From a virus (lineage: Duplodnaviria; Caudoviricetes): DNA of 36,819 bases. The notes under the pieces were generated by a model. The model saw nothing but the letters and a program-made list of their open reading frames with translations. It did no database searches and had not been told where the DNA came from. Shown here in pieces: positions 1 through 36,692 of the stretch. Both the position numbers and the translations under genes were made by a program. The stretch covers positions 1 to 36,819 of the IMG/VR virus record IMGVR_UViG_3300048857_000022; one strand, 5' to 3'. Every line of letters starts with the position of its first letter. Within the stretch, counting starts at the first letter, position 1.

Positions 1-18
1 GAGATTTATGGGCTGGTA

Positions 19-381
19 TTAGTGAGTTGAGCTGGGTTTAGGCGGCAGGTCCGGATCGTCGATACAGGCCGCAAAGACTTCCGCTATAGGTATTCGGTAA
101 CGCCTGCCGGATTCCGGATCGACCAGCACAGCGACCAGGCCGGTGCTGCTGTCTACGTCCAGGTAGCGATGCTCGGGCTCGGGCTTGAGTTCGGAATAGG
201 CACGGTCAACCAGGCGCTTAGCCGTGTGCTCCGGCACCTGCAACCGCTCGTTGAGGTGGGTAACGGCGCGCATGAGCAATTGGTCAGTGTTGCCCAGGTG
301 TTCGGCTTGATGGCGGATCAAGAAGGAGAGGGCAGCGGCCTGCATGCTGTCCAGATAGTTTTCAGGGAACTGAATATTCAT
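19..381 (-). CDS. Hypothetical early protein, phiCTX-like
   Basis: 120-aa ORF overlapping the ogr stop, in the early operon. Confidence 0.7.
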   Translation of the reverse strand: MNIQFPENYLDSMQAAALSFLIRHQAEHLGNTDQLLMRAVTHLNERLQVPEHTAKRLVDRAYSELKPEPEHRYLDVDSSTGLVAVLVDPESGRRYRIPIAEVFAACIDDPDLPPKPSSTH

Positions 382-674
382 GGACGCTGCTCCAGACCTG
401 ATTTATCCAGCGAGGCTGGCTTGGTGGAGCCCTGCGGGATCTTGGGCTTGAGTCTCCCGGTCACGGTTGGAGCCATGGGCACTACGTGATAAGGATTCTC
501 CAGCGCAGACGGCCGGATCTGGTGAACGATAGTCTGATGACCTTTGAACGTGGCTCCGCAGTCGAAGTTGGTGCACTCGTACCATACGTTCTTGAAGCAT
601 GGTGCCTCCTCTTCAGTGGTACGCATACGGAGCTTTTCACGGCAGCTAGGGCATTTCATTGCCATTGCTCCCAT
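378..674 (-). CDS. ogr: Ogr/Delta-like zinc-finger late transcription activator
   Basis: CPSC...YECTNFDCGATF C4 zinc-finger motif typical of Ogr/Delta. Confidence 0.9.
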   Translation of the reverse strand: MGAMAMKCPSCREKLRMRTTEEEAPCFKNVWYECTNFDCGATFKGHQTIVHQIRPSALENPYHVVPMAPTVTGRLKPKIPQGSTKPASLDKSGLEQRP

Positions 675-838
675 GGTTTTACAGCTCCCCTATCCTCGGA
701 AGCGGTGGCATTGAGGCCTAATTCTTCAGGTACGGACATCATTCTCGTAAACCTTTGATACTGCAGGGCCTGGCGTTGGTTGGCAGTCGTTACTGCCGCC
801 GTTCAGGCGTTCTGATTGGGTTCATGGGTTCCTCCTTC

Positions 839-1012
839 CTACACTTCATACAGTGCTCGGTTACGGCCTGTGAGCTTTATTGCGGCACGACGCAAGCGAG
901 CCTTAACTAACCATTCCGCCGCCTGGTTTCGGTCGGCTAACCCTTTGCGCTGCTGGACCCGGTCGAGCAGGTCGCACTCGTTGTCTTCATAATCAAAGCT
1001 GGCTTGAGGCAT
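839..1012 (-). CDS. Small hypothetical early protein (57 aa, MPQASFDYEDNECDLLDRVQQRKGLADRNQAAEWLVKARLRR...)
   Basis: Translated by hand (below the ORF-track cutoff). Co-oriented in the early operon. Confidence 0.6.
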   Translation of the reverse strand: MPQASFDYEDNECDLLDRVQQRKGLADRNQAAEWLVKARLRRAAIKLTGRNRALYEV

Positions 1013-1037
1013 TCAAGGTACTCATAAGTGACTGGGT

Positions 1038-1229
1038 TCAAGCTGAGGCCTGGCCTAACATGCTTTGAGGCAGTAAGAGTTCTCTTGCTTCCTGCATAGC
1101 CAACTGTCGGAGCAAGGTGGCTTGATCAAGACCGGTGTAATCCACCAGGGCATTGATCAGGGCCTGCTCGTAGTCGTCGAGGTTTATCGTGGCGCGATTT
1201 TTCCGAATTCGCTTACTGTCCTGGTACAT
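1038..1229 (-). CDS. Small early protein, RHH-like
   Basis: MYQDSKRIRKNRATINLDDYEQALINALVDYTG: strand-helix-helix pattern. Confidence 0.65.
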   Translation of the reverse strand: MYQDSKRIRKNRATINLDDYEQALINALVDYTGLDQATLLRQLAMQEARELLLPQSMLGQASA

Positions 1230-1293
1230 GTCAGAGTCCTACTTAACGTTTCCCGCAACACTGAAAAGCCCTTGCGCAATGCCGGGCATGCCA

Positions 1294-1506
1294 TCAACTC
1301 AAAATCACACCTTCTTTCAAACCCAGTAGAACGGCAGCTCGGTGAGATTCACCACGCGTGCACTTCTTCTGTCCGTTCAAAACGGCATACACAGTGCTGG
1401 GGCTCAGCTTGTTAGCTTTTGCGAACTCCTGCGCAGTAATTCCGAGCCGTCTTAGCCTGGCTTTCGCCTGATTACGGGCTTGCTCGGGGATGTCTGCGTT
1501 CGGCAT
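1294..1506 (-). CDS. Ner/Cro-like HTH DNA-binding protein (BcepMu gp16-type)
   Basis: GITAQEFAKANKLSPSTVYAVLNGQKKCTRGESHRAAVLLGLK. Divergent from the repressor. Start reassigned to ATG at 1506. Confidence 0.85.
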   Translation of the reverse strand: MPNADIPEQARNQAKARLRRLGITAQEFAKANKLSPSTVYAVLNGQKKCTRGESHRAAVLLGLKEGVILS

Positions 1507-2220: not shown

Positions 2221-2874
2221 ATGCTGGAAGCGCTAGTCATCGCCTTCTTTATCGTGGCGGGATCGGGTATCTCTGGAATGATTTACCCTCCATCGATAGG
2301 ACTTAAAAACAAAAGCCGCAAGCAGATACTTGGGCTTAGCGTAGTCTGTCTTCTCCCTGTGCTCTTAGGCCTTGCTTCACTCATCGGGTCGAAGTCAACA
2401 GGCTCGCCAAATTTCCTTCAAGGCCTACTTTTAGTCGTTACCGGCCTTTATGCATGTTGGTGGCCTTTTGTCTCATTGGTAATGCTGGTTAGAAAGCATT
2501 ACCAATTAAGGAAACAAGCACCTTCTGCTTTGAAGCCACGTTTACCTTCCGAAGACCTTCTCCAAAAAGCCCCTGCGCCTAAGCCAGAAAAAAAGATACA
2601 GCCAGCCCCTATTAAGCCTCTTAAAGAGCCAACCCGAGCTATACGCACCGGTTGGAAACTGGGTCTTATAGAGTTCACTTATGAGGATTCAGAAGGAGCT
2701 ATCACTAGCCGCAAGGTAACAGTTCACTCGGTTACGCATACGTACTTAAAAGGTAAGTGTCATGCACGTAAAGCCGAGCGCACTTTCCGCTTGGATCGTA
2801 TAGTTGGGGATATTATTGACCTTGAAACAGGTGAGCTTATTAGGCCTTGGGAGCTTGCCCATCGGTATGCTTAA
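2221..2874 (+). CDS. Membrane-anchored WYL-domain protein
   Basis: About three N-terminal hydrophobic segments, a Pro/Lys linker, and C-terminal IEFTYEDSEGAITSRKV...YLKGKCHARKAERTFRLDRI (WYL signature). Confidence 0.8.
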   Translation: MLEALVIAFFIVAGSGISGMIYPPSIGLKNKSRKQILGLSVVCLLPVLLGLASLIGSKSTGSPNFLQGLLLVVTGLYACWWPFVSLVMLVRKHYQLRKQAPSALKPRLPSEDLLQKAPAPKPEKKIQPAPIKPLKEPTRAIRTGWKLGLIEFTYEDSEGAITSRKVTVHSVTHTYLKGKCHARKAERTFRLDRIVGDIIDLETGELIRPWELAHRYA

Positions 2875-4151
2875 TCGGCTTTAATAATGTTTGCTTCCTG
2901 CATCTTCTTCCACTCCCGCTCTACAGCACGCTTTGCCGTGTGCTTGTTGGCGTATAGGTAGTGCAGCCGCTTGGGCTTGGTCTGGTCTCCTGCAGTAACC
3001 GCAACCTCTTTGCCCGTCTTCTTGTCCCGGTAGTATGCGACTACGCCGGTATAGTCGCCCTGAACATCCTCAAACAGATCTGATACCAGGTCCTCTGGAA
3101 GTTTGGCCTCCAGATCCAGGCGCGTGGTGTAGCCACCGTCTGCGGTGAGGCTGTGCTGGACGTTGCCGCCGTGCCAGATGATCGCGTCGATCTCGGCCTT
3201 AACTCCAACCAGGGTATAGCTGAGTTCGGGAATCAGATCCGGACGGCCCAGGGCCAGCTGGTAGGTGAGGGTAGCGGTCCCGCGCTGCAGACGATTCCAC
3301 TCCGCACGCGCTGCACGTAGAGCACTGGCCTGATCGCTGTAGGTATGCCGCAGGTCCTTGAGGTTGTTTCCGCCTCCGGCAATAGCGTGCTGTTTCTTTG
3401 CGCTGTTCACATCGTAGTAATAGGCCCTCACACCTTCGTAGCTTTCCCGATCCGCCTGCAGGTAGCTGTGCTGGTCGCCATCCTCGCGGGTGAGGGTGAT
3501 ATGGCCCAGATCCGCGCCGCTGGCTGTCTTGCCTTTGCCCTGCTGGATAAAGATCAGCCGGCCCGCTTTGACAGTGGCTACCGCGTCGTGGTCTTCACCC
3601 AGGCGAGTGAGCAGGTTGGCGTCAGACTCGCCGGTCTGGTCCAGCTGCAGCACCGGAAGCGTGTCGAGTTCCTTGGCAATGACTGGCGTCAGGCCTTGTC
3701 GAGTGGCAATAGTGCGCAGGATCGTCCCGAGGGTAGTGCTGGTGTAGCCGGCGTCTCGTTTCGCTTTCAGCGTCTTGCGTAGGTCCGCACTGCGGGCACG
3801 AATGCTCAGTATATCCGGTGCGCCGCTATGCTCGGTCTCGTCCACCACATAAGTGCCTTTGTCGACCAGGCCAGTAGTATTCCAGCCGAGCCATAAACGC
3901 ACCTTGGCGCCGCGAGGTGGGATAGCGAGCAAGCCATCGTGATCACTCAAGACAATGCTGAGCTGATCGGCTTCCAGGCCTCGGTTATCGGTGAGGTCCA
4001 GGCTAATCAGACGCGGGGCTATCAGGTTGCTGATGTCCGTCCCGTCCACGGTGAGCTTGTAGGTAGCGACTGGGTAACCAGCACCGTTCACCTCCTGGTC
4101 ATACAGCTTGCGCAGCTGGCAGGTGGCCTGGTTGAGGGCTTCGCGGATCAT
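2871..4151 (-). CDS. D: Baseplate hub / late control protein D
   Basis: RLISLDLTDNRGLEADQLSIVLSDHDG, DQTGESDANLLTRL; P2 gene order. Confidence 0.92.
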   Translation of the reverse strand: MIREALNQATCQLRKLYDQEVNGAGYPVATYKLTVDGTDISNLIAPRLISLDLTDNRGLEADQLSIVLSDHDGLLAIPPRGAKVRLWLGWNTTGLVDKGTYVVDETEHSGAPDILSIRARSADLRKTLKAKRDAGYTSTTLGTILRTIATRQGLTPVIAKELDTLPVLQLDQTGESDANLLTRLGEDHDAVATVKAGRLIFIQQGKGKTASGADLGHITLTREDGDQHSYLQADRESYEGVRAYYYDVNSAKKQHAIAGGGNNLKDLRHTYSDQASALRAARAEWNRLQRGTATLTYQLALGRPDLIPELSYTLVGVKAEIDAIIWHGGNVQHSLTADGGYTTRLDLEAKLPEDLVSDLFEDVQGDYTGVVAYYRDKKTGKEVAVTAGDQTKPKRLHYLYANKHTAKRAVEREWKKMQEANIIKAD

Positions 4152-4588
4152 AGGATGCTCCGCAGGATGCCATTGGCCGAAGCAATGCCGGCACCGAGCA
4201 GGTCGGTGCGGCTGTCGTCAATGCGCTTGAGCGAGAGGGTAAATTCAATCCGCCGAGCTGCACCGTCACGAAAGAAGATCGTTCTGGTTTCACTGATGCT
4301 TTCGATGACCCAAAGCCCCATGATTCGACCCGTACCTTCGATCATGGGCCAGGCCGAGCCGGACTCGGCCATGTAGCGCAGCACGTCAAGGCTGGCAGCA
4401 GTGCCGGTAAGCTCGGGCGCAAGCCAGCCGGGCAAGGTGATGCTGTCATCACCACGGCCCACAAACTGACGCGCCGGCGGGGCACCGACGCGCGAGCTGC
4501 TCGCGTGTCGGTATTCGGTTTGCCGCTGCAGCTCCTGGTAGGCGAGGGTGGAGAGGCTAAAGATAAAACGTCCTAGGGCCATCATCAT
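4148..4588 (-). CDS. U: Tail protein GpU
   Basis: MMMALGRFIFSLSTLAYQELQR...GAARRIEFTLSLKR. Confidence 0.92.
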   Translation of the reverse strand: MMMALGRFIFSLSTLAYQELQRQTEYRHASSSRVGAPPARQFVGRGDDSITLPGWLAPELTGTAASLDVLRYMAESGSAWPMIEGTGRIMGLWVIESISETRTIFFRDGAARRIEFTLSLKRIDDSRTDLLGAGIASANGILRSIL

Positions 4589-4594
4589 GGCGGG

Positions 4595-7165
4595 TTACTC
4601 CTGGTCTCGCAGGCTGCTGCGGCCGCGGGCGGATTGTTCAGACTTGGCCCTGGCCAGCTCGGCGCGTACCGCCTTGGCAATCGCCTGAGCGTCCATGCCT
4701 GGAGCGGCATTGATCGTAAAGTGATAGGTGTCGCCTGCCACCGGTGCCGGCGCAGCACGCTGCGAAACCGGCGGCCTATCATCAAAGGTGATGCCCGCCA
4801 TAGCTGGAGTGGCTGTGGTACTCACGCCAACGGCTACTGCACCGGCAGCGGTTAGGCGCTTGGCAGTATTCGCCATTTGCGATAGGGGGCCGTCTTCGCC
4901 CTTGGCTATCCCTACAGCTAGCCCTTGCATCGTGAAGTCGCCCAACTGGGCAAATACGCGGCTGGGCGAGTGGATCCCCGTCTTCTCCTTGAACCATTCA
5001 GCGGCGTTACCGGCCACTCTAAAAACCGAGTCCTTGAGCGCTCCCAACTGGCCGGTCATGCCGTTGATTAGGCCATCGATGATCATGCCGCCAAAGCCGG
5101 TAAACTTGGCCGGTAGCTCAATGCCCAGGTAGTTCAGAATGCCTGACCATGCGCTGTACATAAGCCCAAGCGGGCTAAAGTTGGCCAGAAGACCGGCAAC
5201 GCCTGCGATGCCATTGGAAAAGCCACTTTTGATCTCCTGCCAGAGCGAGGCAAACCAGGGGCCGACTGTTCCCCAATGCTGGTAGATCAGCGTGGCGGCA
5301 AGGGCAATGCCGGTAATAAGGGCCAGGATCGGGTTGGCCATGGCAGCCGCTGTCACCAGGCGGATCCCGGTGGCCACCAGGGGCAGGGCGGACCTGGCCA
5401 ACTGGAACAGGGTGCCGATCAGACTAAAGCCCTTGAAACCCAGCAAGCCCATGCCATAGCGCAGCAGCGCAAACGGGCCAAGCACACTGGCAATGGCCAG
5501 GGTGAGAGTGCCCATGCCGGCAGTAATGACGGCGATCACAGCTGCGCCTTTGACCAGGTTATTGGTCAGCTCCGGATTAGCCACGGTCCAGGCCTTGATC
5601 TTGCTGATCACGCCGGTGAGATTTTGAATAAGATTACGTAAGGGGGCGTCCTGGCCTTCTTCCATTTGAATGCCCAGGTCTTGCCAGGCGCTGCTCAACC
5701 CATCGAGATCGCCGCGCATGTTGTCGCCCATGACCTTGGCGATTTTGCTAGCCTGGCCACCAGAGGCCTTGAGTTCTTTGATAAATTTCTGCAGCTCGCC
5801 GTTACCAGCCTGTTCGACTAACACCTGAAATCCGGCGACCGCCTCTTCCCCGGCAATGTCCTTGAACAGGCCCGCGACCTTGGCATTACCCATGCCTTTA
5901 GTCTTTTTACTGAGGTCGGTCAGGATATCCGGCAGCGATCGCAGGTTGCCCTTGGCGTCCTTGGCTTTGACGCCCAGCTGGTCGAGTGCCTTGCCGGCGG
6001 CCTTGGACGGTGCGGCCAGGCGGGAGAGAATGCCGCGCAGGGCGGTACCGCCCATGCTGCCCTGAATACCGGCATCACCCAGCTTGCCGGCCATGGCGGC
6101 CACCTCTTCCAGCGGCTGGTTTAGCGAGGCGGCGACCGGGGCGACGTATTTCATCGTCTCGCCCAGCGTCTGCAGGGTAGTGTTGGACTGGCTAAAGGTG
6201 CCGGCCAGGACATCCCCCAGTCGGCCCATATCCTTGGCCTGTAGCTTAAAGCCGGTCAGGATGTTGGAAGCGATATCGGCCGTATCAGCCAGATCTGATT
6301 TTCCAGCCTTGGCAAGATCCAGCATGCCGGGCATGGCATCCTGAATGGCCTTGGGCTTGAAGCCAGCCATGGCCAGATACCCTTGCGCATCGGCGGCCTG
6401 GCCGGCACTAAACTGGGTTGAGGCACCCAGGTCCCTAGCCTGTTTGCGCAGTGCCTTATAGTCGTCTGAGTTCTTGTCTATACGGGCCAACGCCTGAACC
6501 CGGCTCATGCTGGCATCAAATTCCAGGCCTGGAGCCAGGAGCTTGCTGCCGGCATAGAGGATGCCGCTACCACCGGCCAGCATCCCGGCACCGGATCCGG
6601 CCATTGAACCGGCTACGCCCTTGGTCTTTTCATAGGACTGCTTCATCTGGCCCAGCCGCTCCTGCTGCGCAGCGACCAATTTCATCCGTTCCTGTTGGCG
6701 TTTGTAGGCCTGGGTGGTGGCTTCGATCTTGCTCTTGAGCTGGCTTTCGCTGCCGGCCAGGTTGCGGGTATCGACGCCGGCTTCGCGTAGTTTGGGAATC
6801 AGCCGCTGCAGCTCGGCGCGCTGCTCGGTGTGCTTGTTCTTCAGCCGCTCGACTGCCGCGCTGGCATTGATAAAGGTGCGCTGAAAGGCGGCCGAGGGTG
6901 CGTCTGTTGCCTTGAGCTGCTCCTGGTACTGCCTGAGCTTTTGCTGGGCGCGAGCGAGTTCTTCGCCGGTCTGCCGCACGGCATCATGCTGCTTGCGATA
7001 GTTGCCGATATCGGACTGCTGAGCGTTCAGGGCTTTAACCTGGTCGCGGGCGGCTTTCAGCGCTTTAGCCGTGCTGTTACTGCCGGCCATGATGCGCTTC
7101 ATAGGCGCGGTCACTTTGTCGAGTGCCGACAGCAGCACTCGGATCTGTAGGCTATTAGCTGCCAT
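4595..7165 (-). CDS. T: Tail tape measure protein
   Basis: 856 aa, Ala/Gly-rich, TP901-type core (GASTQFSAGQAADAQGYLAMAGF). Confidence 0.95.
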   Translation of the reverse strand: MAANSLQIRVLLSALDKVTAPMKRIMAGSNSTAKALKAARDQVKALNAQQSDIGNYRKQHDAVRQTGEELARAQQKLRQYQEQLKATDAPSAAFQRTFINASAAVERLKNKHTEQRAELQRLIPKLREAGVDTRNLAGSESQLKSKIEATTQAYKRQQERMKLVAAQQERLGQMKQSYEKTKGVAGSMAGSGAGMLAGGSGILYAGSKLLAPGLEFDASMSRVQALARIDKNSDDYKALRKQARDLGASTQFSAGQAADAQGYLAMAGFKPKAIQDAMPGMLDLAKAGKSDLADTADIASNILTGFKLQAKDMGRLGDVLAGTFSQSNTTLQTLGETMKYVAPVAASLNQPLEEVAAMAGKLGDAGIQGSMGGTALRGILSRLAAPSKAAGKALDQLGVKAKDAKGNLRSLPDILTDLSKKTKGMGNAKVAGLFKDIAGEEAVAGFQVLVEQAGNGELQKFIKELKASGGQASKIAKVMGDNMRGDLDGLSSAWQDLGIQMEEGQDAPLRNLIQNLTGVISKIKAWTVANPELTNNLVKGAAVIAVITAGMGTLTLAIASVLGPFALLRYGMGLLGFKGFSLIGTLFQLARSALPLVATGIRLVTAAAMANPILALITGIALAATLIYQHWGTVGPWFASLWQEIKSGFSNGIAGVAGLLANFSPLGLMYSAWSGILNYLGIELPAKFTGFGGMIIDGLINGMTGQLGALKDSVFRVAGNAAEWFKEKTGIHSPSRVFAQLGDFTMQGLAVGIAKGEDGPLSQMANTAKRLTAAGAVAVGVSTTATPAMAGITFDDRPPVSQRAAPAPVAGDTYHFTINAAPGMDAQAIAKAVRAELARAKSEQSARGRSSLRDQE

Positions 7166-7274
7166 CGGGGTTTACTCGCTTACGGGCGCGTTCACGCCAG
7201 TCCATTAGTTCAGCCAGGCCCAACTCATCCAGTTGGGCGGGCTGCCAGTGAAAGGTGATAGCCAGATCCGCCAT
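7155..7274 (-). CDS. E': GpE' (C-terminal part of the -1 frameshift product gpE+E')
   Basis: MADLAITFHWQPAQLDELGLAELMDWRERARKR. Frame stays open back to the slippery TTTTTTG at 7325-7331. Confidence 0.85.
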   Translation of the reverse strand: MADLAITFHWQPAQLDELGLAELMDWRERARKRVNPDGS

Positions 7275-7282
7275 CGCATCTT

Positions 7283-7618
7283 CTACGTGGCGGGGGAGAG
7301 TTCCGCCTTGATGGACTTCTTCAGCAAAAAACTGCCGATCTTGCCTCCCACTTCCACCAGGTCGGCTGGATCCATTGCGCGGGCTTCAGCTTCGGTAATC
7401 GAGGGCAGGCTAATGCGCGGGACCACTTTGATGATCGCGGTTACATCCAGGTTTAAAAGGTCGGAAAGGGATACGCCACGCAACTCGCCGGCGCTGGGCT
7501 TACGCAGGGTGAACTGGTCAATGACCTGGGCACCGCGTCTGATGGGCTCATCCAGCATGATGACATTCTGGTCCATTTCAGGGGCGGTAATAGCCTGGTC
7601 TTGGGTTGGGGTAGTCAT
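7283..7618 (-). CDS. E: Tail assembly chaperone GpE
   Basis: TLRKPSAGELRGVSLSDLL...MDPADL; lies between tube and tape measure. Confidence 0.9.
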   Translation of the reverse strand: MTTPTQDQAITAPEMDQNVIMLDEPIRRGAQVIDQFTLRKPSAGELRGVSLSDLLNLDVTAIIKVVPRISLPSITEAEARAMDPADLVEVGGKIGSFLLKKSIKAELSPAT

Positions 7619-7696
7619 AAGGTAAAGCTCCTAGCAGAGTGCCCGCCAAAACGGGCAAATGTGGCATTTAGAAATTTCTAAATCGAAAAAATAGGC

Positions 7697-12701: not shown

Positions 12702-12710
12702 GCGGCTACC

Positions 12711-28602: not shown

Positions 28603-28731
28603 GGATACAGTTTCCTAAAAGGTACTGCTCACGTCAACTTTTGACGTCACCTTCTGTCGCATAAGTTATGCTTAAAAACATCAAGGACAACCTTTTATCC
28701 AGACGAGAAAGCTGAATGAGAGATGGTAACT

Positions 28732-28869
28732 ATGGACAAAGAACTCTTTGATGATCTAGTCGAAAGCATGGAGCAGATTAACGAAATCGCTGCGGGGGAG
28801 CGGGAGCCCTCCCGCATCTTCGAGGTTGAGAAGGATCCAACCCACGTTATTTCTGCGCTACAGGCTTGA
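28732..28869 (+). CDS. 45-aa peptide resembling the N-terminus of NadS/HigA2-type antitoxins, lacking the HTH
   Basis: MDKELFDDLVESMEQINEIAAGEREPSRIFEVE..., translated by hand. Could be a truncated remnant. Confidence 0.5.
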   Translation: MDKELFDDLVESMEQINEIAAGEREPSRIFEVEKDPTHVISALQA

Positions 28870-28916
28870 TAGGCTGCCTGCTTGCTTTACGAAAAAGCCT
28901 CCAAATGAAGGCTTTC

Positions 28917-29315
28917 CTATGAGCTCTGTTTGGGTAATCGCGTTTTTGCACGGCTTACCCACTTGGAGTTGATATCTTCAAGGTCGGTTAGCTGGCCGGC
29001 TTCGGCTTCGGCCAATCCCTCTCGAATTGATTTTGAGTGCCACGAGTCGTCGTCCTTCAGTTCGGCCAAGCGTAGATCGTACGCGCTTTGAAGGTTCATC
29101 CAGAACTTCGCTGTAGTGCCTAAAGCATTACTGAGTAGCAGAGCCAGATCAGGTGTTATCTCCTGACGCTCACACAGAATTTCGTTCAGTGTGGTTTCTG
29201 GAATAGAGATTGTCTGAGCAAAACTTGCAGTTAAGGTACCTGACGGGTTTAGAAACTCTTCTCGCAGAATTTCTCCTGGATGAATTGGGCGCATTCCATT
29301 TTTGTGCATAGCCAT
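28917..29315 (-). CDS. higA: HigA-family antitoxin with a ParD/CopG-antitoxin-like C-terminal extension
   Basis: GMRPIHPGEILREEFL...ITPDLALLLS.ALGTTAKFWMNLQSAYDL, then WHSKSIREGLAEAEAGQLTDLEDINSKW. Confidence 0.8.
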   Translation of the reverse strand: MAMHKNGMRPIHPGEILREEFLNPSGTLTASFAQTISIPETTLNEILCERQEITPDLALLLSNALGTTAKFWMNLQSAYDLRLAELKDDDSWHSKSIREGLAEAEAGQLTDLEDINSKWVSRAKTRLPKQSS

Positions 29316-29500
29316 AAACATCCATTCATGATCTAAAGCAGAACTGCCGGTACTGGCTATCAAAGATAACAGCGATTCGAATTTAGATAGGCATTGCCGG
29401 CAGCACTTACAAATTAGCATATTTGCAATGAGCTGATCTTAAGCGATTCGCAGATGGGTATATGCATTCCGCCACAGCTCATAGCTTAAAGGTTTCAAGA

Positions 29501-29710
29501 CTACGACCTATCTATGGATTGAAGCTCTGCTAAAAGCTTTGCTGCTTTACGAGCACCGCGGCTGGCATTTCCCTCTCCTAGCTCAACAAACAGCTGATAA
29601 GTTTCATCGTCCAGCGTCATAAGCCGCTTTTGAGTTTTAATGCCTTCTGGCAAATCGGCGGCGCGCCCAGCGCCTGCACGCGCGCCGCCTCTTGCTGTTT
29701 TTTCTGTCAT
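29501..29710 (-). CDS. Small DNA-binding protein (RGGAR-GAGR motif plus RHH-like)
   Basis: MTEKTARGGARAGAGR...RLMTLDDETYQLFVELGEGNASRGAR. Confidence 0.7.
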   Translation of the reverse strand: MTEKTARGGARAGAGRAADLPEGIKTQKRLMTLDDETYQLFVELGEGNASRGARKAAKLLAELQSIDRS

Positions 29711-29738
29711 TGAGATTAACCCTTCCAATATGAAGGCC

Positions 29739-29768
29739 AAAAAAAACCGCTCCGAAGAGCGGCTTTTT
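29739..29768 (-). terminator. Rho-independent terminator
   Basis: CCGCTC-CGAA-GAGCGG flanked by A and T tracts. Confidence 0.75.
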
Positions 29769-29781
29769 CCAGCTGGCCTGC

Positions 29782-29961
29782 TTAGTGACCTAGAAACTTA
29801 GGAGCCACAACCCAAAGCAGCGCCGCAACAGTCCACACCGCACCAGTTACCAGAACTGGCTTTATAAACCATGCGGGACTGCTGAAACTTGCGGCACGCG
29901 CGTCGCTTTCGGCCTGCAGCTGCTGCAGTTCCTTAATAATGTCTTTTTCGTTGATCGGCAT
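29782..29961 (-). CDS. 59-aa protein with C-terminal TM helix
   Basis: MPINEKDIIKELQQLQAESDARAASFSSPAWFIKPVLVTGAVWTVAALLWVVAPKFLGH, with AGGAGG RBS; translated by hand. Confidence 0.7.
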   Translation of the reverse strand: MPINEKDIIKELQQLQAESDARAASFSSPAWFIKPVLVTGAVWTVAALLWVVAPKFLGH

Positions 29962-30027
29962 GGTTGCCTCCTATCGCGTGGCGTCGCCTATGGGAAAACT
30001 ATAGCCCTTAGTGCCTTTACTGTATAG

Positions 30028-30050
30028 AACCCCGCCTTTCGGCGGGGGCT
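30028..30050 (-). terminator. GC hairpin / terminator after the 65-aa gene
   Basis: CCCCGCC-TTTC-GGCGGGG. Confidence 0.6.
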
Positions 30051-30054
30051 TGGA

Positions 30055-30252
30055 TCATTTGTGAAGGTTATTTAGCAGAACACCTAATGCGCCGATCAGA
30101 CCGCTTAGGATGACTACCCAGTAACCGATTGCCTCCCTTTTTAGCTTTGCCGTTTCGGCTTTGGTTTTTTCCTCGTTTAACATTCCGATTCTTATGTCCT
30201 GAATCAGCTTGAGTCGTTCTAGCTCTTCCTTTGTTTGTCCTTTGTCTTCCAT
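30055..30252 (-). CDS. 65-aa coiled-coil protein with C-terminal TM helix
   Basis: ...KTKAETAKLKREAIGYWVVILSGLIGALGVLL; AAGGAG RBS. Confidence 0.75.
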   Translation of the reverse strand: MEDKGQTKEELERLKLIQDIRIGMLNEEKTKAETAKLKREAIGYWVVILSGLIGALGVLLNNLHK

Positions 30253-30290
30253 CGCTTCTCCTTTCTAACAAGGGCACTGCCTTGTATGAC

Positions 30291-30323
30291 TTGAATTATA
30301 TATATAATTCAAAAGAGAGGCAA
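30291..30323 (-). promoter_or_regulatory. Strong sigma70 promoter overlapped by a perfect 22-bp palindromic operator
   Basis: TTGCCT-17bp-TATAAT; TTGAATTATATATATAATTCAA (30291-30312). Confidence 0.75.
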
Positions 30324-30546
30324 GAAGTATGTTTTCATTAGGGCATCCGTCATTGAGCGCATGGGTATCGGCAGGTGCATTGACGACCAACGGTCGAAAC
30401 TCTGTAGGTAAAAATGCGGTCATTTTCATGGGAGCAATGGATACTGCTTTTCTTGTGTAAACTGCCGCTGGTCCTGCATTACCCCCAACCTGCGGCAGTT
30501 CTTTTCAACTATGAATGACCCTGCTCCAAGCATTAAGAGGTAGCCC

Positions 30547-30666
30547 ATGACGACAATTGAAAATTGCCCTTCATGCGGCACATCTGAGCTTGCACGTATG
30601 TATACCCTTAGCCTTTTATATTGCCCCGACTGCAACCTCTCGTTTGCCTGGGGCAGTCATAGCTGA
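30547..30666 (+). CDS. 39-aa zinc-ribbon microprotein
   Basis: MTTIENCPSCGTSELARMYTLSLLYCPDCNLSFAWGSHS; GAGG RBS. Confidence 0.5.
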   Translation: MTTIENCPSCGTSELARMYTLSLLYCPDCNLSFAWGSHS

Positions 30667-30678
30667 CCCTGCCAAAGT

Positions 30679-30909
30679 ATGCCCTTTGTCTCCCAACATT
30701 CTGAGTTCTTAGCGGCAGCTCAGGCCAGACTGACCTGCTCCTGTAAACGGCGCGATGCACTAATCAATATCATTAGGCATTTAGAAGAAAAGGGCATGGA
30801 CTTATGCAGTGCACGTTGAACGCTCCTAGCTATAGACGAACGTATAGAAATCCAAAGCTATCATCTGGACACGTTACTGAGGTCTAGAAGAACAAACCCT
30901 CCTGATTAA
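30679..30909 (+). pseudogene. Possible small helical protein interrupted by an in-frame TGA at 30817
   Basis: Frame reads on past the stop (...GMDLCSAR*TLLAIDERIEIQ...) to TAA at 30909. Confidence 0.3.
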
Positions 30910-30950
30910 CTCAAAACCTTAACCACCATAGTGTGCACGTAACATTTTAA

Positions 30951-31071
30951 TGTAGTCATTTGGGTATACCCCAGCGACTACACCCAAAACAGGCCTTTCA
31001 GGTGTAGCGATAAATAGGTAAAACGACTTATACGACTACACCTATAATTCGCTACACCTAACGACTACACC
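30951..31071. other. res site (three-subsite) for the serine resolvase
   Basis: Site I TGTAGTC..GGG-TATA-CCC..GACTACA (30951-30982); further CGACTACACC / GGTGTAGCG half-sites at 31001-31071. Confidence 0.8.
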
Positions 31072-31082
31072 CGAGGCCTTAA

Positions 31083-31736
31083 ATGTTCATTCGCGCTTAC
31101 CTTCGAGCCAGCACCGACGACCAGGACGCTAATCGGGCTCGAAAGACGCTCCAATCCTTTGCAGCCGACCAAGGTATCCGCATCGCTGCCTTCTATATAG
31201 AGAATGCCTCAGGCACGACAGTGGATCGCTCCGAGCTGCTGCGCCTGCTTGCTGATGCCTCACCAGGTGATGTGCTCCTGGTCGAATCAGTCGACCGACT
31301 GACCCGCCTTCCCAGACCGGCCTGGGAACAGTTGCGTAACCAGATCGCAGCGGCAGGCCTCCAGGTCGTCGCACTCGATCTACCCATCACGCATGCCGTA
31401 CTCAAACCTACGGGCGAGGACGGAATTCAGGAGTGGATGCTTAAAGCCATCAGCCAGATGTTTCTGGAGTTCATGGCCGCGTTTGCACGGAAGGACTACG
31501 ACCTACGGCGCGAGCGGCAAATACAAGGTATTGAGAAGGCCAAGCGCACAGGCCTATACCAAGGACGAAAAACCGATCAGGAGCAACGGCGTCGGATTCA
31601 GGAATGCTTAGCTAAGGGTTTCTCCGTTCGCAAAACGGCGGATCTGCTCGGCTGCTCAACCAGTACAGTGTCCAGGTTCAAAAGAGAAGCAGCCGCGCTA
31701 ATGCAGTCGGATAATCAATTCGCCATGAGCATCTAG
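31083..31736 (+). CDS. Small serine recombinase (plasmid resolvase) with C-terminal HTH
   Basis: MFIRAYLRASTDDQ...DVLLVESVDRLTR...RERQIQGIEKAK..G.YQGRK. Confidence 0.93.
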   Translation: MFIRAYLRASTDDQDANRARKTLQSFAADQGIRIAAFYIENASGTTVDRSELLRLLADASPGDVLLVESVDRLTRLPRPAWEQLRNQIAAAGLQVVALDLPITHAVLKPTGEDGIQEWMLKAISQMFLEFMAAFARKDYDLRRERQIQGIEKAKRTGLYQGRKTDQEQRRRIQECLAKGFSVRKTADLLGCSTSTVSRFKREAAALMQSDNQFAMSI

Positions 31737-31883
31737 GACTGGACGATTCATCTGTAGTTATAAGAGGCTGTACGCACGTCTAGAGACTTAGACCTAATGT
31801 AAATCTAGCGAATCTGGCAATTTGTCAACCAAACGGACATGGCAAATACAGACATCTGTCAACCAAACCATTAAGGAGCAAGC

Positions 31884-32096
31884 ATGCAGTTACATGAAAC
31901 CACTGAGGTCTGTGAGGCAACCTCAACTGAACAAGCAAACGAGCTACTGGCTAACGGATGGAATTTGTTAGCAGTGACTACTATTGGAGGTCCAGCAGGG
32001 CATAAACCCTGTTATGTCTTGGGGAAAAAGAAACTGACAGAGATTGCTGCAGCGACTCAAGCTGCGCAGGGGAAAGTATTACTATCAAAGGAATAG
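31884..32096 (+). CDS. Small hypothetical protein
   Basis: 70 aa with TAAGGAG RBS; hairpin AAGCCCT..AGGGCTT follows. Confidence 0.65.
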   Translation: MQLHETTEVCEATSTEQANELLANGWNLLAVTTIGGPAGHKPCYVLGKKKLTEIAAATQAAQGKVLLSKE

Positions 32097-32147
32097 AGCA
32101 TAAGCCCTGAACTTAGGGCTTGGTCAAGAGGGGATTTATATTGCGAG

Positions 32148-32416
32148 GCTACCAATCTTCATGTGTAAAGATCCCCTTCCCTATCGGGATCAAATCCGCT
32201 TTAGGCCCCCCTGGAGCTCAGATCGATACGCTGACCATTTGGTTAGAACTAGGGTCGAATGGAAGTATCCACAGCAGGCCGAAAGGGCGTGTAGTTCGGC
32301 AGGCGCATATAAGAGTTAGCCGCACGGTAAAACTCCCAGATCCCATGCTTTCCAGCACTGCGTAAAGATCGCTCAAGATTTAAGGTAACACCGTCTTTTA
32401 AGCGAACTATTGCCAT
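32148..32416 (-). pseudogene. Possible degraded gene downstream of rep (MAIVRLKDGVTLNLERSLRSAGKHGIWEF...)
   Basis: Begins 8 nt after the rep stop, terminates early, and protein-like sequence continues in another frame. Confidence 0.3.
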
Positions 32417-32424
32417 AGTCTCTT

Positions 32425-33156
32425 CTACCCTTGATCGGATGATATGGGCAACGCCTCAGCGTCTGTCGTTGAGTAAAACGTAAACTTCAACCGATCAGGC
32501 ACCCTGCCCTTTTTGATGATCTCGTAGTCCATCACCATGTTGGCCTTCTCAGGTAGCTCGTTCTTTGCTGGATCCAGCACACGCGTCCGGAGATTACTCA
32601 TACGCTCGTACGCTTTGCCTAGGCCAAGGCGCTCTCGGAAGTCGTCCAGTTTGACGATCCAGTAGCCGAAACCCTCGACCTCGTAGCGCATGAACATTTC
32701 GAAGAGTCGCACACTATGAACTGAGGTCAGGTTAGCTACACGCATCAGCTTGTAGCGCGTGAAATCGCCTGTCAGCTCAGATAGGTAGGGTGCGACAACA
32801 GGCGTGAAATACAGCTCAACGAAGCCGTCGTATTTGGTCGTGCTCTTACGCCAAATCCAGCGATATTCGTCTTCGGGGCTGTTTGCTACTTCAGGAATCT
32901 TGATAGTGCAGTGGTATAGGCTTTCTGTCGCTTCCTTGATGGCCTCATAGGCCCACTTTCCCGGCAGGTTGTATGCCTGAGCGAACTCATGCGCATAGAT
33001 GCGGATCGGCTCAGGGATTGGCTTGCGAGAGTCAATCTTGGAGATGGCTAGCAAAAGCAAGCGCTTCTCCTGGAGCGTCATTTTGTATGCCGCCTCCAAC
33101 AGAGCGTTACCCTTTACTACCCAGTGGTCGGCCTCATCGATCATCAGGTCCGTCAT
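32425..33156 (-). CDS. Plasmid replication initiator, Rep_3 (RepB / pPS10 RepA-like) family
   Basis: VVKGNALLEAAYKMTLQEKRLLLLAISKID...FTRYKL..VANLTSVHSVRLFE...RVLDPAKNEL...IKKGR. Confidence 0.93.
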   Translation of the reverse strand: MTDLMIDEADHWVVKGNALLEAAYKMTLQEKRLLLLAISKIDSRKPIPEPIRIYAHEFAQAYNLPGKWAYEAIKEATESLYHCTIKIPEVANSPEDEYRWIWRKSTTKYDGFVELYFTPVVAPYLSELTGDFTRYKLMRVANLTSVHSVRLFEMFMRYEVEGFGYWIVKLDDFRERLGLGKAYERMSNLRTRVLDPAKNELPEKANMVMDYEIIKKGRVPDRLKFTFYSTTDAEALPISSDQG

Positions 33157-33210
33157 AATGAGTCACATGCCGGGAATGAAAGACCGAGTGTATCTAATCA
33201 AAAGCCTATC

Positions 33211-33715
33211 TGCTACATGTCCGGAATTTGTAGCGCGAGTGTGGATAACGTCCGTTTTTTGTAGCATAGAGTCCGGAATTTGTAGCGCAAAGTCCGGAAT
33301 TTGTAGCACTCGCTTCGCTGGAAGCCGCATGGCTAAAGGCCTGCAGCCATCTCTATAAACAAGTTAAAAAACAAGTTAAAAAACAAGTTAAAAAACAAGT
33401 TAAAAAACAAGTTAAAAAACAAGTTAAAAAACAAGTTAAAAAACAAGTTAAAAAACAAGTTAAAAAACAAGATAAAAAAACAGATCAAGAACAGTGATTT
33501 TTTGAGTCTTTTTTAAGAGCAAAAGTCCAGAATTTGTAGCACTGAGAAAGCTAACTGCCCTCCCCTACTCGCTATAAAAACCAGAAAGTCCGGTGTTTGT
33601 AGCATGAGCTTCATCATTGACTGACAGATCGGCTGAAAAGCGTTGATCAGGAAAGGCGTTCCAGCCCATTTCTAGGTTGCCAGCCTCTATCCCAGAAAAG
33701 TCCGGAATTTGTAGC
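33211..33715. repeat. Iteron origin: seven GTCCGGAATTTGTAGC-like repeats plus DnaA box
   Basis: Copies at 33219, 33250, 33271, 33292 (last three 21 bp apart), 33525, 33588, 33700. TGTGGATAA at 33240-33248. Inverted half-site TGCTACA at 33211. Confidence 0.9.
33357..33480. repeat. AT-rich tandem 12-mer array (CAAGTTAAAAAA x9 plus one variant), probable unwinding element
   Basis: Direct reading of the sequence; adjacent to the iterons. Confidence 0.9.
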
Positions 33716-33726
33716 ACGAAAGCTAA

Positions 33727-33822
33727 ATACATATAAAATACTTACGTTATACGTATGATTTACCTATTCCATGCTCACATAAAATGTATTTTATGATTAT
33801 TTCATACGTATATTATATGTAT
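33727..33822. repeat. Centromere-like ATACGTAT repeats (downstream cluster)
   Basis: ATAC(G/A/T)TA(T/C)-like octamers at 33727, 33738, 33749, 33760 and 33804, 33815 (11-bp period). Confidence 0.65.
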
Positions 33823-33857
33823 ATCAGCTGGCTAAGCTGGGCTCTAAAACAAGCGGC

Positions 33858-34148
33858 TCACTCTTGTAGCCGCTTGAGTTCATTCCGAATAGCTTGCATC
33901 ACAAACGCTGTTCTGGTGTTCAAAACCTCGTCGTTTCGAACGAAATCATCTACACGCTCAAGCAGATCAGACGGGTAAAGCATCGTTACCGGCTCCCTTT
34001 TCTTCTTCTTTTTAGGCACCTCTGTTTCTGCTGGTTTACCGCTGTCTGGAGCACCCTGGATGAACTGCTTTATGGCTTGGTTATCTGGCTGCTCGGTAGG
34101 TGAAGCTGGAGCCATTCCAGGGGGAAGCATCGATACCCTCTTTTTCAT
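33858..34148 (-). CDS. ParG-like RHH centromere-binding protein
   Basis: Disordered N-terminus, IKQFIQGAPD, C-terminal PVTMLYPSDLLERVD...RTAFVMQAIR; overlaps the parA stop. Confidence 0.8.
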   Translation of the reverse strand: MKKRVSMLPPGMAPASPTEQPDNQAIKQFIQGAPDSGKPAETEVPKKKKKREPVTMLYPSDLLERVDDFVRNDEVLNTRTAFVMQAIRNELKRLQE

Positions 34149-34813
34149 TCAACATCTCCAAAGATATGACGCACCAAACGCTTAAGCTCAAAGCTGGCTT
34201 TTTGGTCTTTACGTTCAAGCTCATCGACACTCAGTCCACGACTTGATGCCACAGCAAATGCTTTCCGATCGCCAAGTGATGCATCCAAGAAAGGAAGCTG
34301 CGGGTAATGCTCAAGCACCCTTTCAGCTTCAAGATTGTCAGAAGCATTCACACCAGGGTCAGCCATAGAAAGCATGGCATGCACACGGAGAGGTTGAATC
34401 TTGGCTCGCGAGCGGGCCCGTTGTGCTTCATCTATAAGAGAAGCCATTTTGCTAAGTGCCCAAGTATCAAAGGCGCGAGGTTGGAACGGGACCACCAATA
34501 CATCGGCTAAGGCCAAGGCGGAGCGCAACGACTCGCTATCGAAACCACCACAGTCCAGGATTACGTCATCATAAAGTTTGGATTGATGCTCAACCTGTAC
34601 GTAGAAGTCATCGCCCTTCGGGTAATGGGATGCAGCAACAGCTGGTTTTACTCCATCCATTAAACGAAGCGTAATCGCCTGGCCAGAACTGTTCTGCGGA
34701 TCTCCATCGACCAGCCAAACATTCTTACCCTGATTAGCTCGTGCTACTGCTAGCTGAACTGAAGTGGTGCTCTTGCCGGTACCGCCTTTTGTATTGCCGA
34801 TGAGAACGATCAT
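34145..34813 (-). CDS. parA: Type Ib partition ATPase ParA
   Basis: KGGTGKST deviant Walker A, LVDGDPQ, VILDCGG; no N-terminal HTH. Confidence 0.93.
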   Translation of the reverse strand: MIVLIGNTKGGTGKSTTSVQLAVARANQGKNVWLVDGDPQNSSGQAITLRLMDGVKPAVAASHYPKGDDFYVQVEHQSKLYDDVILDCGGFDSESLRSALALADVLVVPFQPRAFDTWALSKMASLIDEAQRARSRAKIQPLRVHAMLSMADPGVNASDNLEAERVLEHYPQLPFLDASLGDRKAFAVASSRGLSVDELERKDQKASFELKRLVRHIFGDVE

Positions 34814-34878
34814 GACGCCTCCCGTGGCATCTGGTTATGTATGCGGTACGGATCATATCAATACTAAATGCATATGCA

Positions 34879-34930
34879 ATACATATTTTATACGTATGAA
34901 ATACGTATAAAATATGTATAAAATACGTAT
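34879..34930. repeat. Centromere/operator-like ATACGTAT repeats upstream of parA
   Basis: Octamers at 34879, 34890, 34901, 34912, 34923 (11-bp period). Confidence 0.75.
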
Positions 34931-35082
34931 ATAAGTATTACTTTGAATGTATTCCATATGTTTATCACATGCATGCAGCCTATTTCTCTTCCTCTGTACG
35001 ATCTGAGCCAGCGGCAGAGTAAGGACATGCGGCAAAAGATTCCGAAGAAGAAAAACTTTCTAGCTCCAGCACCCGGCGCGCG

Positions 35083-35103
35083 CAGTTGTCCCCCCGCGAC
35101 GCC
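35083..35103 (-). other. cos site (P2/phiCTX-type cohesive end)
   Basis: Minus strand GGCGTCGCGGGGGGACAACTG resembles P2 GGCGAGGCGGGGAAAGCAC and the 21-nt phiCTX end. Orientation relative to Q is correct. CCCTGCA repeats are nearby. Confidence 0.8.
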
Positions 35104-35774
35104 TGCGGGCTAAATAGGTCGCTTTTTCTGCACCCCTGCACAGGCCTCTGTACGGCCCACGGCGGGGCCTGCGCGGCATTTTCAGTCCCAATAAAACCCT
35201 GCAAAACCCTGCAGAGGTCCCCCTTTCCACGGCCCCCCTGCGCGCCCATACGGCCTGTCTCTGCTTTTGCCTGATTTGAGCGCTGCGCTCTTCTCTCAAG
35301 CCGCTCCGTTTGGAACGAGCGAAAGATTCTCAGCCACCTCCGTCACTGATTACCCCGGCTCGCTTGCGAGACGAAGCCTGCGGCGTGCAGCAGCTGGAAG
35401 GGCGCTAAGACCTCCAGGCGGCTCTGTTGCTCCAGGGAGAACCCAGGGGACCCCGCGCGCCTGTAGGCGCGAAGTCGGGGAACATCAATACAGAGGAGCC
35501 TGGCCCTCACACCGTGTCTGCGTTATGCACAGGGCTTAAAGGCTCTGTTCTTTAAGCGAAGCGGTACCACTCAACACTTTTTTTTGCATTTAACTCAAAA
35601 CAGCTAAAAGGGGAACTGGCCGGCTTGACTCTATCGAGAACTGAATGGGTAGAAACGCATACCTATTAGCGTGAATCTGGGGCGTTTTGAGAGGTTTTAA
35701 GAGGGCGGGAGGGTAATGCTGGGGTACAGGCGTGCAAAGGCCCCGCTGGGCAGCGGTACGCTTGAAAGGGAAGG

Positions 35775-36650
35775 CTATCGTCGAAAGAGGGCGTCTACCG
35801 CCTGGGTAAGCGCACTACCTGTCAGGCTGGGGTTTTGTTGGTTCAGCTGAACAGCAAGCTCGGCTCTCCTGCGGTTGAACTCAATCTGCTGCTCTTGCTG
35901 CTGGTTTTCTGTAGCGATTCGCTCACGTGTCTGGAAGGCACGACGACGCGCTTGTTTGGCTACGGTAGCCTCAGCTTGCTGTAGCGCCTTTTGTTGCTCC
36001 CGACGCTGGATCTCTTTGAGCTTTAGGCGGCGCTTTTCTTTCTTGCGCTCCCGAGCCTGCTTGAGTTGGTGCGCTAGACCCAGTTCGATAAACAAACGCG
36101 TCCGCAGGATGATCATGGTGCGGGTAATCCAGCGCTTGCCATCATGAAACAGCCGCTTCTGCTCACGGCGGATGTAGCGCGCTTTTTCCAGGAGTTTTAG
36201 CATCCGCGAAAGAGAACATTGATGGATCTCTGCGTCTACCGCTAGGCCATTCTGCAGGTTGAGGTGGAATTGGCCGTCATTATCCATCCAGCCAAGTACC
36301 ATTGTGGCGATATCGACACGGGCCATCATCGGCTCGGCGACGGCTGAAAGTTTGCTCCAGATCTCTTGTCTGACACGGCGGCCGGATAGGTGAACGCAAT
36401 CCAGGGAACGCAGCCATTTCCCCTTACGCTCGCTCGCTTCTACTTTGACACGTCTTGCGGCTTCGCCCAGGAACGTCCTTTTCTGAGCTTCGGACAGCCT
36501 GGCAACGTTGGTCTTGTCCCGATCAGGCAGTGGCTTACCGCGCTTGGACACTGGGAGGTAAAACGCAGAGGCCGGTGAATCAGCCGGTGCACGACGCGTT
36601 TTACCTTTGCGCTGCAGGACCTTTGCAGCGGTGTTTTGAGCGGTTTGCAT
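35775..36650 (-). CDS. Putative wHTH replication initiator in the P2 gpA position
   Basis: GLAVDAEIHQCSLSRMLKLLEKARYI HTH, LFIELGL, basic coiled-coil C-terminus; last gene of the early operon across the junction; no obvious HUH/YxxK motifs. Confidence 0.6.
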   Translation of the reverse strand: MQTAQNTAAKVLQRKGKTRRAPADSPASAFYLPVSKRGKPLPDRDKTNVARLSEAQKRTFLGEAARRVKVEASERKGKWLRSLDCVHLSGRRVRQEIWSKLSAVAEPMMARVDIATMVLGWMDNDGQFHLNLQNGLAVDAEIHQCSLSRMLKLLEKARYIRREQKRLFHDGKRWITRTMIILRTRLFIELGLAHQLKQARERKKEKRRLKLKEIQRREQQKALQQAEATVAKQARRRAFQTRERIATENQQQEQQIEFNRRRAELAVQLNQQNPSLTGSALTQAVDALFRR

Positions 36651-36692
36651 AACATTTCCTTGTACAGCGGGCAGAGCTTTCCCAAACCCATT

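Follow-up and report, generated by a model that had tools for sequence, protein, structure and literature searches.

The window analysed here, the complete 36,819-nucleotide viral record IMGVR_UViG_3300048857_000022 (Caudoviricetes), combines a P2-type phage genome related to phiCTX with a plasmid cassette and lacks an integrase, and we consider it probable that it represents a temperate phage kept as a circular plasmid, likely with two replicons. Positions 1-127 are identical to positions 36693-36819, a terminal direct repeat attributable to assembly overlap that leaves a unit length of 36,692 bp; IMG/VR accordingly classes the record as having direct terminal repeats. A first-pass annotation, made from the letters alone, had proposed a P2-type phage-plasmid, and this reading is supported by the gene content, the layout of relatives, the missing integrase and the available contigs.

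Pfam and PHROG scans of 59 chosen open reading frames (ORFs) of the window matched Q, P, O, N, M, L, X, holin, endolysin, Rz, R and S, as well as V, W, J, I, H, a tail-fibre partner, FI, FII, E, T, U and D, with the head, tail, baseplate and lysis set standing uninterrupted in P2 order. The head cluster has the divergent Q-P and O-N-M-L arrangement of the Peduoviridae (PF05125 at E 2e-121, PF05929, PF05944 and PF05926): the terminase ATPase P and portal Q occupy 24639-27427 on the plus strand and are 82% and 73% identical, respectively, to their phiCTX counterparts, and the head-lysis operon (O, N, M, L, X, holin, endolysin, an ORF of 69 amino acids (aa), Rz, R and S) occupies 18188-24460 on the minus strand. 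The contractile tail and baseplate also follow P2 order, in a baseplate and tail-fibre block (12276-17027, minus; V, W, J, I, H, the fibre partner and a 141-aa ORF) and a tail operon (2871-9464, minus; FI, FII, E/E', T, U and D), in which E ends with a TTTTTTG run that we take to be the P2 slippery motif. A C/Cox-type switch and an Ogr late activator, their roles assigned by homology and position, complete the Peduoviridae-type gene set. The repressor, a CI/C-like helix-turn-helix (HTH) protein (1589-1930, plus) only 44-70% identical among relatives, is divergent from the Cox-like HTH gene (1294-1506) of an early operon (19-1506, minus) that further holds ORFs of 63 and 57 aa, an Ogr/Delta zinc finger (378-674) and a 120-aa ORF (19-381), and runs on across the origin of the record into 35775-36650. 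Identity to phiCTX is 65% for the Cox-like protein and 44% for Ogr. The cos core (35084-35104, minus) is identical to the annotated phiCTX cohesive end at 19 of 21 positions, at 30 of 33 with flank and at 39 of 50 over a wider span, and is conserved in 9/9 aligned elements; the P2 junction agrees with this site at 32 of 50 positions, with 30 shuffles of the P2 query giving 26-30. The virion, lysis and switch genes and the cos site thus stand as first annotated.

Six-frame searches of the window found neither a tyrosine integrase (PF00589) nor a large serine integrase (PF07508) nor gpA (PF05840), and tblastn with P2 Int, phiCTX Int, P2 gpA, phiCTX orf37 and KS14 gp2 yielded zero matches in it. 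No integrase or gpA turned up in any other frame, and the profile search, which the first-pass annotation had itself proposed as a check, agrees with its statement that both genes are missing. PF00589 is likewise absent from 4/4 close virus records, and PF07508 from 5/5, the window counted. According to the available text of PMC13586616, the canonical model of an integrating P2 prophage requires an integrase and GpA; the window presents neither the combination of tyrosine integrase and attP nor the gpA rolling-circle initiator, the latter being absent also from phiCTX and KS14. The accompanying premise that phiCTX replicates by gpA had to be given up, as the annotation of phiCTX gives orf37 as a primase, one that blastp does not match to P2 A.

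The interval between the portal gene and cos carries the plasmid cassette. Its Rep_3 initiator (32425-33156, minus; E 4e-32) is 31% identical to KS14 gp37 and adjoins a probable plasmid origin (33218-33715, plus) with six 17-bp AGTCCGGAATTTGTAGC iterons (chance mean 0.12), a perfect DnaA box (33240-33248, minus) and an array of roughly ten copies of an AT-rich 12-bp unit (33357-33479). The iterons and the box are conserved in 5/5 aligned origins, and 4/4 relatives have about two copies of the 12-mer; since contigs break at the array, which forms a 41-nt loop at about five times the flanking depth, its expansion in the window is real and its copy number uncertain. ParA (34145-34813, minus; Pfam and PHROG) forms a type Ib-like pair with a weakly matched ribbon-helix-helix (RHH)-like partner (33858-34148, minus; NF041551, E 6e-5). 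WATACGTAT-type repeats account for 30 strand-matches, compared with a mean of 4.7 expected by chance, and 18 of the 30 fall in two clusters flanking parA-rhh, namely centromere-like ATACGTAT repeats downstream of rhh (33726-33823) and centromere/operator-like repeats with an 11-bp period upstream of parA (34878-34939). A 217-aa small serine resolvase (31083-31736, plus), 93-96% identical in relatives of either Rep cassette (see below), is preceded by a probable res site (30951-31082, plus), at which conservation across five elements begins. Non-coding conservation ends just past cos and begins again at res, and these limits define a swappable cassette with a GC content of 0.48 versus 0.58. The first-pass reading of Rep_3, iterons, ParA/RHH, centromere-like repeats and resolvase/res is therefore borne out, and the window unites, in a single replicon, full phage functions with genes for plasmid replication and partition, as in the phage-plasmids of Pfeifer et al. 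2021.

The replication genes listed in that annotation (Rep_3, no gpA) were an incomplete set, as a 291-aa winged-helix protein, R291 (35775-36650, minus), had been missed. It closes the early operon, 60 bp behind the gene before it, with which it shares the strand although the origin of the record lies between, and would for this reason be repressed in a lysogen; we regard it as a candidate lytic initiator. A conserved non-coding block extending from cos towards R291 (35065-35600, minus) is the candidate lytic origin. A DnaA-like box at 35523-35531 was rejected as an IncFII-style oriR, being not conserved in relatives, with one-mismatch boxes at chance level. The structural model of R291 (pLDDT 81) shows a winged helix and a long helix; Foldseek retrieved nothing at E<=0.001 and only generic winged-helix proteins, and a comparison with 50,697 phage records gave no match. 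In the ESM Atlas, a cluster at score 0.95 has PF02387 in 10% of its members, and one aligned R291 homologue matches NF040977 (RepA_IncFII_LM) at E 2e-8. Among 56 remote homologues scanned, a subset of 119 profile hits, 18 match NF040977 at E<=0.001 (best E 1e-12), all below its cut-off of 70 bits. Because these matches stay below the cut-off, and R291 itself reaches neither that of NF040977 nor that of PF02387, we regard R291 as a RepA-like protein, putatively a remote relative and not a member of the IncFII group. What it has in common with the RepA of IncFII and IncL/M plasmids is a winged helix with a long basic helix behind it, and the transitive profile hits; it differs in the lack of a direct match and of an antisense RNA, an Rfam scan of the window having returned 0 matches.

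Remote homologues of R291 (32-38% identical) adjoin Q-P-O-N-M-L in eight long-contig loci, and in 5/5 loci checked (L022, L024, L026, L028 and L030, all P2-like with the R291-like gene beside head genes) a large serine recombinase and an S24 repressor lie upstream. The presence of this recombinase in all five makes a constitutive plasmid role there unlikely, and replication after induction would fit as the role of the homologue. One of the loci (L022) adjoins a radical-SAM/TRAM gene, and in a 53-kb stretch (G014) matches were limited to head genes and a weak one to a tape measure. Further homologues occur in phages of 34-41 kb whose virions are of other types (G005-G010, with loci L033, L035, L039, L041, L043 and L048), which have a tyrosine recombinase in 6/6 and ParA in four.

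In the life cycle that we favour, CI would shut the early operon during lysogeny, Rep_3 would fire at the iteron origin, ParA/RHH would use the ATACGTAT repeats to segregate the copies, and the circles would stay monomeric through the action of the resolvase. In lytic growth, the Cox-like gene, Ogr and R291 would be co-expressed; R291 would amplify the genome, probably from the block between R291 and cos, Ogr would turn on the late operons, and the terminase PM would cut at cos and package one circle. With no gpA, the progeny are likely to be circles, and the P2 terminase prefers closed circular monomers. The suggestion, also made in the first-pass annotation, that monomer packaging makes the P2 morphogenesis module compatible with plasmid life is plausible, and we keep it as a hypothesis because the available passage of PMC6893505 speaks only of some phages as preferring closed circular monomer substrates. 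The repeated plasmid origins discussed below fit this idea without proving it.

The layout Q-cargo-res-Rep_3-RHH-ParA-cos-R291-early-CI-tail recurs in plasmid unnamed2 of Pseudomonas luteola FDAARGOS_637 and in three further elements (G001-G003), one of which (G001) is a second closed circle. These three and the two FDAARGOS_637 elements have 31-43 of 51 genes in common with the window, mostly in the same order, at intergenomic similarities of 55-69%, and for most structural proteins the identity among relatives is 80-99%. Among the close R291 homologues listed with a length (n=49), 20 lie on contigs of 35-44 kb and none on contigs longer than 121 kb, and two of the listed homologues are labelled plasmid. 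The record is circular, and relatives have been deposited as plasmids or occur on unit-sized contigs, as would suit extrachromosomal maintenance in the lysogen. Since the named carriers of close R291 homologues are P. luteola, P. asuensis, P. lutea and Pseudomonas, the host probably belongs to the P. luteola group. The sister of this luteola clade is a 37,809-bp contig from Azotobacter beijerinckii (G013:C140), P2-like, with a 44-bp terminal repeat, cos, ParA and R291.

Comparison of 16 elements or fragments points to exchange of the cassette. Six have Rep_3 with a ParA of the window type and five have a 271-aa putative Rep; as for the rest, two fragments fall short of the slot and three differ. 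In three of the 271-aa-type elements the ParA belongs, at high identity, to either of two further types, and in one it is more distant; the 271-aa protein matches 318 plasmid records, often at the record start. FDAARGOS_637 has one element of each cassette type, their repressors being 41% identical, and in P. asuensis the terminase and the cos site each occur twice, alongside one cassette of either type. We infer that sibling elements can live together in a cell by having different Rep cassettes and repressors. NZ_CP044087.1 (L001-L003), deposited as one linear plasmid of 120.7 kb, is a composite of two phage-plasmids joined via a mer/Tn3 transposon and a common resolvase region; it may already be in the phage-plasmid list of Pfeifer et al. 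2021.

Given the two candidate initiators, R291 could be the single true initiator of both states, with the Rep_3/ParA cassette as hotspot cargo that adds stability. The Azotobacter relative, with R291 and ParA and neither of the other two Rep proteins, would suit such an arrangement, as would the second R291-like genes that follow parA in plasmid-like contigs (L014, L017, L018 and L032), the cargo-like GC content of the cassette and the description of the gpA-portal interval as a known hotspot in the accessible part of PMC13586616. We nevertheless think it unlikely, because 11/11 close virion-type relatives or fragments that reach the slot carry a Rep gene there, the iterons and the DnaA box are conserved wherever origins were aligned, and R291 would be repressed in the lysogen by its place in the early operon.

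Slightly less likely still is a plasmid bearing a defective or domesticated phage that forms no infectious particles, or only tail-like ones. Decay does occur in the group: one of the two FDAARGOS_637 elements has its capsid gene N interrupted by the mer/Tn3 transposon, and no capsid or terminase match was obtained in P. luteola NBRC 103146 despite its contigs with cos and R291. In the window, on the other hand, 0 of the 51 genes used as queries has an internal stop, the head, tail, lysis, cos and switch functions are all present, the conservation and gene order of the structural proteins noted above extend to relatives, and the size of 36.7 kb is similar to that of phiCTX (35.6 kb). Judged from its sequence, the window appears intact.

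The circularity of the element, stated in the first-pass annotation, and the continuity of its phage and plasmid parts agree with public sequencing runs, three of which carry at least half of the words of 27000-36692. In both X1 and X2 a single contig spans the origin junction; the X2 contig, of 33,568 nt, runs from 36510 through the origin to 33386 with one substitution and one indel listed, and two runs have the portal-cargo-res-Rep_3 stretch within one contig. Breaks between contigs fall at the 12-mer array and at a 74-nt cos node (35067-35140). Of the two borders at which a misjoin had been envisaged, the one at 27.4 kb is therefore unbroken in X2, whereas near 35.0 kb contigs stop at the cos node and depth changes stepwise. 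Independent support for the parA-cos border comes from an isolate record, as 33453-35378 aligns in one piece, at 86%, to P. luteola FDAARGOS_637 plasmid unnamed2; together, the long contigs and this alignment argue against a misjoin. An excised circle of an integrating prophage or a chimera of prophage and plasmid, as a metagenomic assembly with branch points at cos and the array might yield and as the phiCTX-like phage circles among plasmid-labelled PLSDB records might suggest, is highly improbable when no integrase of either class is present, the portal-to-Rep_3 stretch is assembled in two runs and the parA-cos border is matched in an isolate. In an RNA run, long contig pieces cover 1032-2653, the moron slots described below, 27375-33386 (gapped) and 33525-34919, and so take in the repressor region, the morons and the res-Rep_3 and parA regions, with only short, shallow or no contigs from the virion operons and R291. 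As such contigs show neither strand nor level and cannot rank genes, we do not count this pattern as evidence for a repressed lysogen.

Several observations speak against the interpretation as a two-replicon plasmid phage, or against parts of it. The cos node is common to other DNA in all three runs, which is why no listed contig bridges it, and the depth in X1 rises from 129 to 247-270 at cos-R291. The shared node and the rise probably reflect sibling elements with common cos and R291; in a satellite-like contig (L016) the match to the window is confined to 35068-35141, and in another contig (G012:C43) it lies chiefly at 35061-36717. X1 may be the source run of the window itself, and X2 may stem from the same campaign. 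Duplications of 22 kb and 14 kb occur in the FDAARGOS_637 record, a linear composite of two such elements. For the 271-aa protein there is no match to a Rep family, its proposed role following from its position in many plasmids, and two elements of this type (L005 and G004) have the same data-set prefix, which would tell against a strict limit of one such Rep to each cell but need not mean one cell. Finally, R291 itself has no Pfam, PHROG or NCBIfam match, and in the Azotobacter relative it lies outside the early operon and is the sole Rep candidate found, so it may not be exclusively lytic.

A plasmid prophage of this anatomy is known from Burkholderia phage KS14 (Kisquattuordecimvirus, Peduoviridae, a genus that also includes FLC10). 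The available text of Lynch et al. 2010 (PMC3091744) describes KS14 as a P2-like phage without integrase and gpA that has RepB, ParA and a small serine recombinase and exists as a plasmid in lysogens, as demonstrated by miniprep, and the lifestyle therefore works with these genes. As far as its available text goes, Pfeifer et al. 2021 (PMC7969092) counts KS14 and P88 as phage-plasmids and places KS14, P88 and Arsenophonus elements in a loose VP882 community. The novelty of a P2-type phage-plasmid, implied by the first-pass annotation, thus cannot be maintained, with KS14, P88 and plasmids of Zymomonas, Arsenophonus and Haematospirillum already on record. What is new, in that we did not find it in open-access literature (titles and abstract starts), is the lineage with its RepA-like early initiator, the cassette swapping, the co-residence and the candidate satellites.

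Like the window, KS14 and FLC10 have the P2 virion set without tyrosine integrase or gpA, a Rep_3-type initiator downstream of the portal gene Q, ParA with a small partner, a small serine recombinase and a separate replication gene in the early operon; the gene list of KS14 would imply two replicons, one for the prophage and one for lytic growth. They differ in that the lytic gene of KS14 encodes a 923-aa primase and not R291, its Rep_3 protein is 31% identical, its resolvase adjoins the repressor, no phiCTX-type cos was found in KS14, the intergenomic similarity is about 10%, and KS14 clusters with the integrating KL3. P1 offers a broader parallel, with an iteron Rep, partition and a resolvase for the prophage and a separate initiator for lytic growth; it differs from the window in its 90+ kb genome, pac/headful packaging, tyrosine resolvase Cre, type Ia ParABS and unrelated virion module. 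The nearest described phage is Pseudomonas phage phiCTX (Citexvirus), which has, besides the similar cos, Ogr at the same early-operon position; it carries the primase gene orf37, int and attP before cos, where the window has R291 and the non-coding block, and ctx between cos and Q, where the window has the plasmid cassette. Similarity amounts to 10.3% with KS14 and 26.7% (a blastn-based estimate) with phiCTX, against a genus threshold of about 70% nucleotide similarity, so that the window falls outside both Kisquattuordecimvirus and Citexvirus. Three circular plasmids of 33-36 kb, pZM36 (Zymomonas), pArsFIN13 (Arsenophonus) and Haematospirillum plasmid 1, also combine P2 virion genes with a ParA-type ATPase and have no annotated integrase in their (incomplete) annotation tables; they differ in their separate branches in the tree presented below and in having no R291 match, and pArsFIN13 has a gpA-type replication endonuclease and its Rep/ParA genes near the switch region.

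A tree was inferred from a concatenated alignment of P, Q and N (1215 columns; LG+G4, no mixture model) with 16 of the 21 rows of a first tree, after which the group to be constrained had been chosen. The window clade and the Azotobacter contig join phiCTX with full support (100/100), KS14/FLC10 group with KL3 (100/99), and pArsFIN13 groups with P2/186 (96/99); the joining of P88 and pZM36 represents a long-branch pair and was not used. Descent from KS14 is rejected, forcing the window clade with KS14 giving a p-AU of 4.6e-53. The simplest reading, and a likely one, is that the window lineage acquired plasmid life independently of KS14; a less simple alternative would be ancestral plasmid life with regained integrases.

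Phage-type cos sites occur in the group also on smaller, virion-less DNA. P. luteola NBRC 103146, introduced above, has two cos-bearing draft contigs. One of them, virion-less and 29,188 bp long (G012:C43; loci L074, L075 and L014), has a phiCTX-type cos (20/21), Ogr, R291 at 86% identity and ParA, together with a second R291-like gene, type I restriction genes, many restriction/defence genes and a small tyrosine recombinase, and is a candidate natural cosmid; other contigs of 28-31 kb with R291 exist among the listed homologues. No P2-like or temperate-phage-linked natural cosmids were found in open-access literature. The other NBRC 103146 contig, P4-sized at 12,574 bp (G012:C51; L096 and L016), has cos, Ogr, AlpA, a primase-helicase, SIR2, a resolvase and an R291-like gene, with no integrase among the ORFs scanned, and is a candidate plasmid satellite. 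One of its proteins is helical and aligns with P4 Sid (7jw1_E) at TM 0.52/0.57 and E 0.13, and at Z 9.2 with 219 of 235 residues aligned (rmsd 5.3), the sole near-full-length match of 50 although within the helical background; hhalign gave E 0.014 at a probability of 3%, and there was nothing against P4 Psu, nor at E<=0.001 against BFVD. Homologues of this Sid-like protein lie on 13-kb contigs, and X1 contains a 12,993-nt contig that shares only the cos core with the window. Another homologue, on a 13,606-bp circle (G016; L099) with no match to the window cos, sits beside a P2 capsid gene, a D5 primase, a resolvase, Mob, Ogr and a tape measure. We tentatively suggest, with rather less than even confidence, that the P. 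luteola group harbours a wholly extrachromosomal P2/P4-type system in which several phage-plasmids, co-resident through exchange of Rep/Par cassettes and repressors, help cos-bearing plasmid satellites of about 13 kb and of about 29 kb, the larger class being capsid-sized and cosmid-like.

Besides these modules, the window carries accessory genes. A membrane-anchored WYL-domain protein (2221-2874, plus; PF13280, E 4e-6) occupies the int/attP position of P2, a slot that is variable among relatives; a PADLOC scan of 15 accessory proteins gave WYL matches for this one protein and nothing else. A first moron slot (9543-12233) holds 331-aa and 124-aa unknowns and, at 9543-10559, two tandem stand-alone response-regulator receiver domains, common to the P. 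asuensis element, whose effect might possibly be lysogenic conversion of host signalling. A second slot (17115-18101, minus), with a DUF2513 protein and a 199-aa unknown, has no counterpart among the relatives compared. The variable cargo next to the portal gene (27468-30252) comprises proteins of 102 and 190 aa (the latter weakly YjaZ-like), small ORFs and, at 28723-29420, a HigA antitoxin for which no toxin was found, its neighbouring 48-aa fragment resembling by eye an antitoxin N-terminus. In relatives, a reverse transcriptase-trypsin fusion lies between Rep_3 and the resolvase (L009:9357-11153 and L002:9268-11064), and genes for SEFIR/TIR, ApeA-HEPN, Dam and kinases are also among the cargo; the cargo slots appear, from this content, to act as defence hotspots. 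A promoter scan of the window stayed below the shuffle level.

KS14 was viewed as an exception among P2-like phages. The window lineage, taken with the plasmids of Zymomonas, Arsenophonus and Haematospirillum, points to several switches of the P2 virion module to plasmid life; searches that require an integrase and gpA would down-rank such elements. With an integrating phage, phiCTX, as its closest described relative and sharp limits of the swap at cos and res, the lineage offers a small natural system for studying the phage-plasmid switch and whether packaging of closed monomers favours it. If the tentative scenario above is true, R291 would be a plasmid-derived initiator that replaced gpA or the primase in both integrated and plasmid P2-like phages, and the P2-like phage-plasmids of P. 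luteola would serve as helpers for cos-bearing plasmid satellites, a candidate route by which defence cargo and cos-bearing plasmids may spread in this species.

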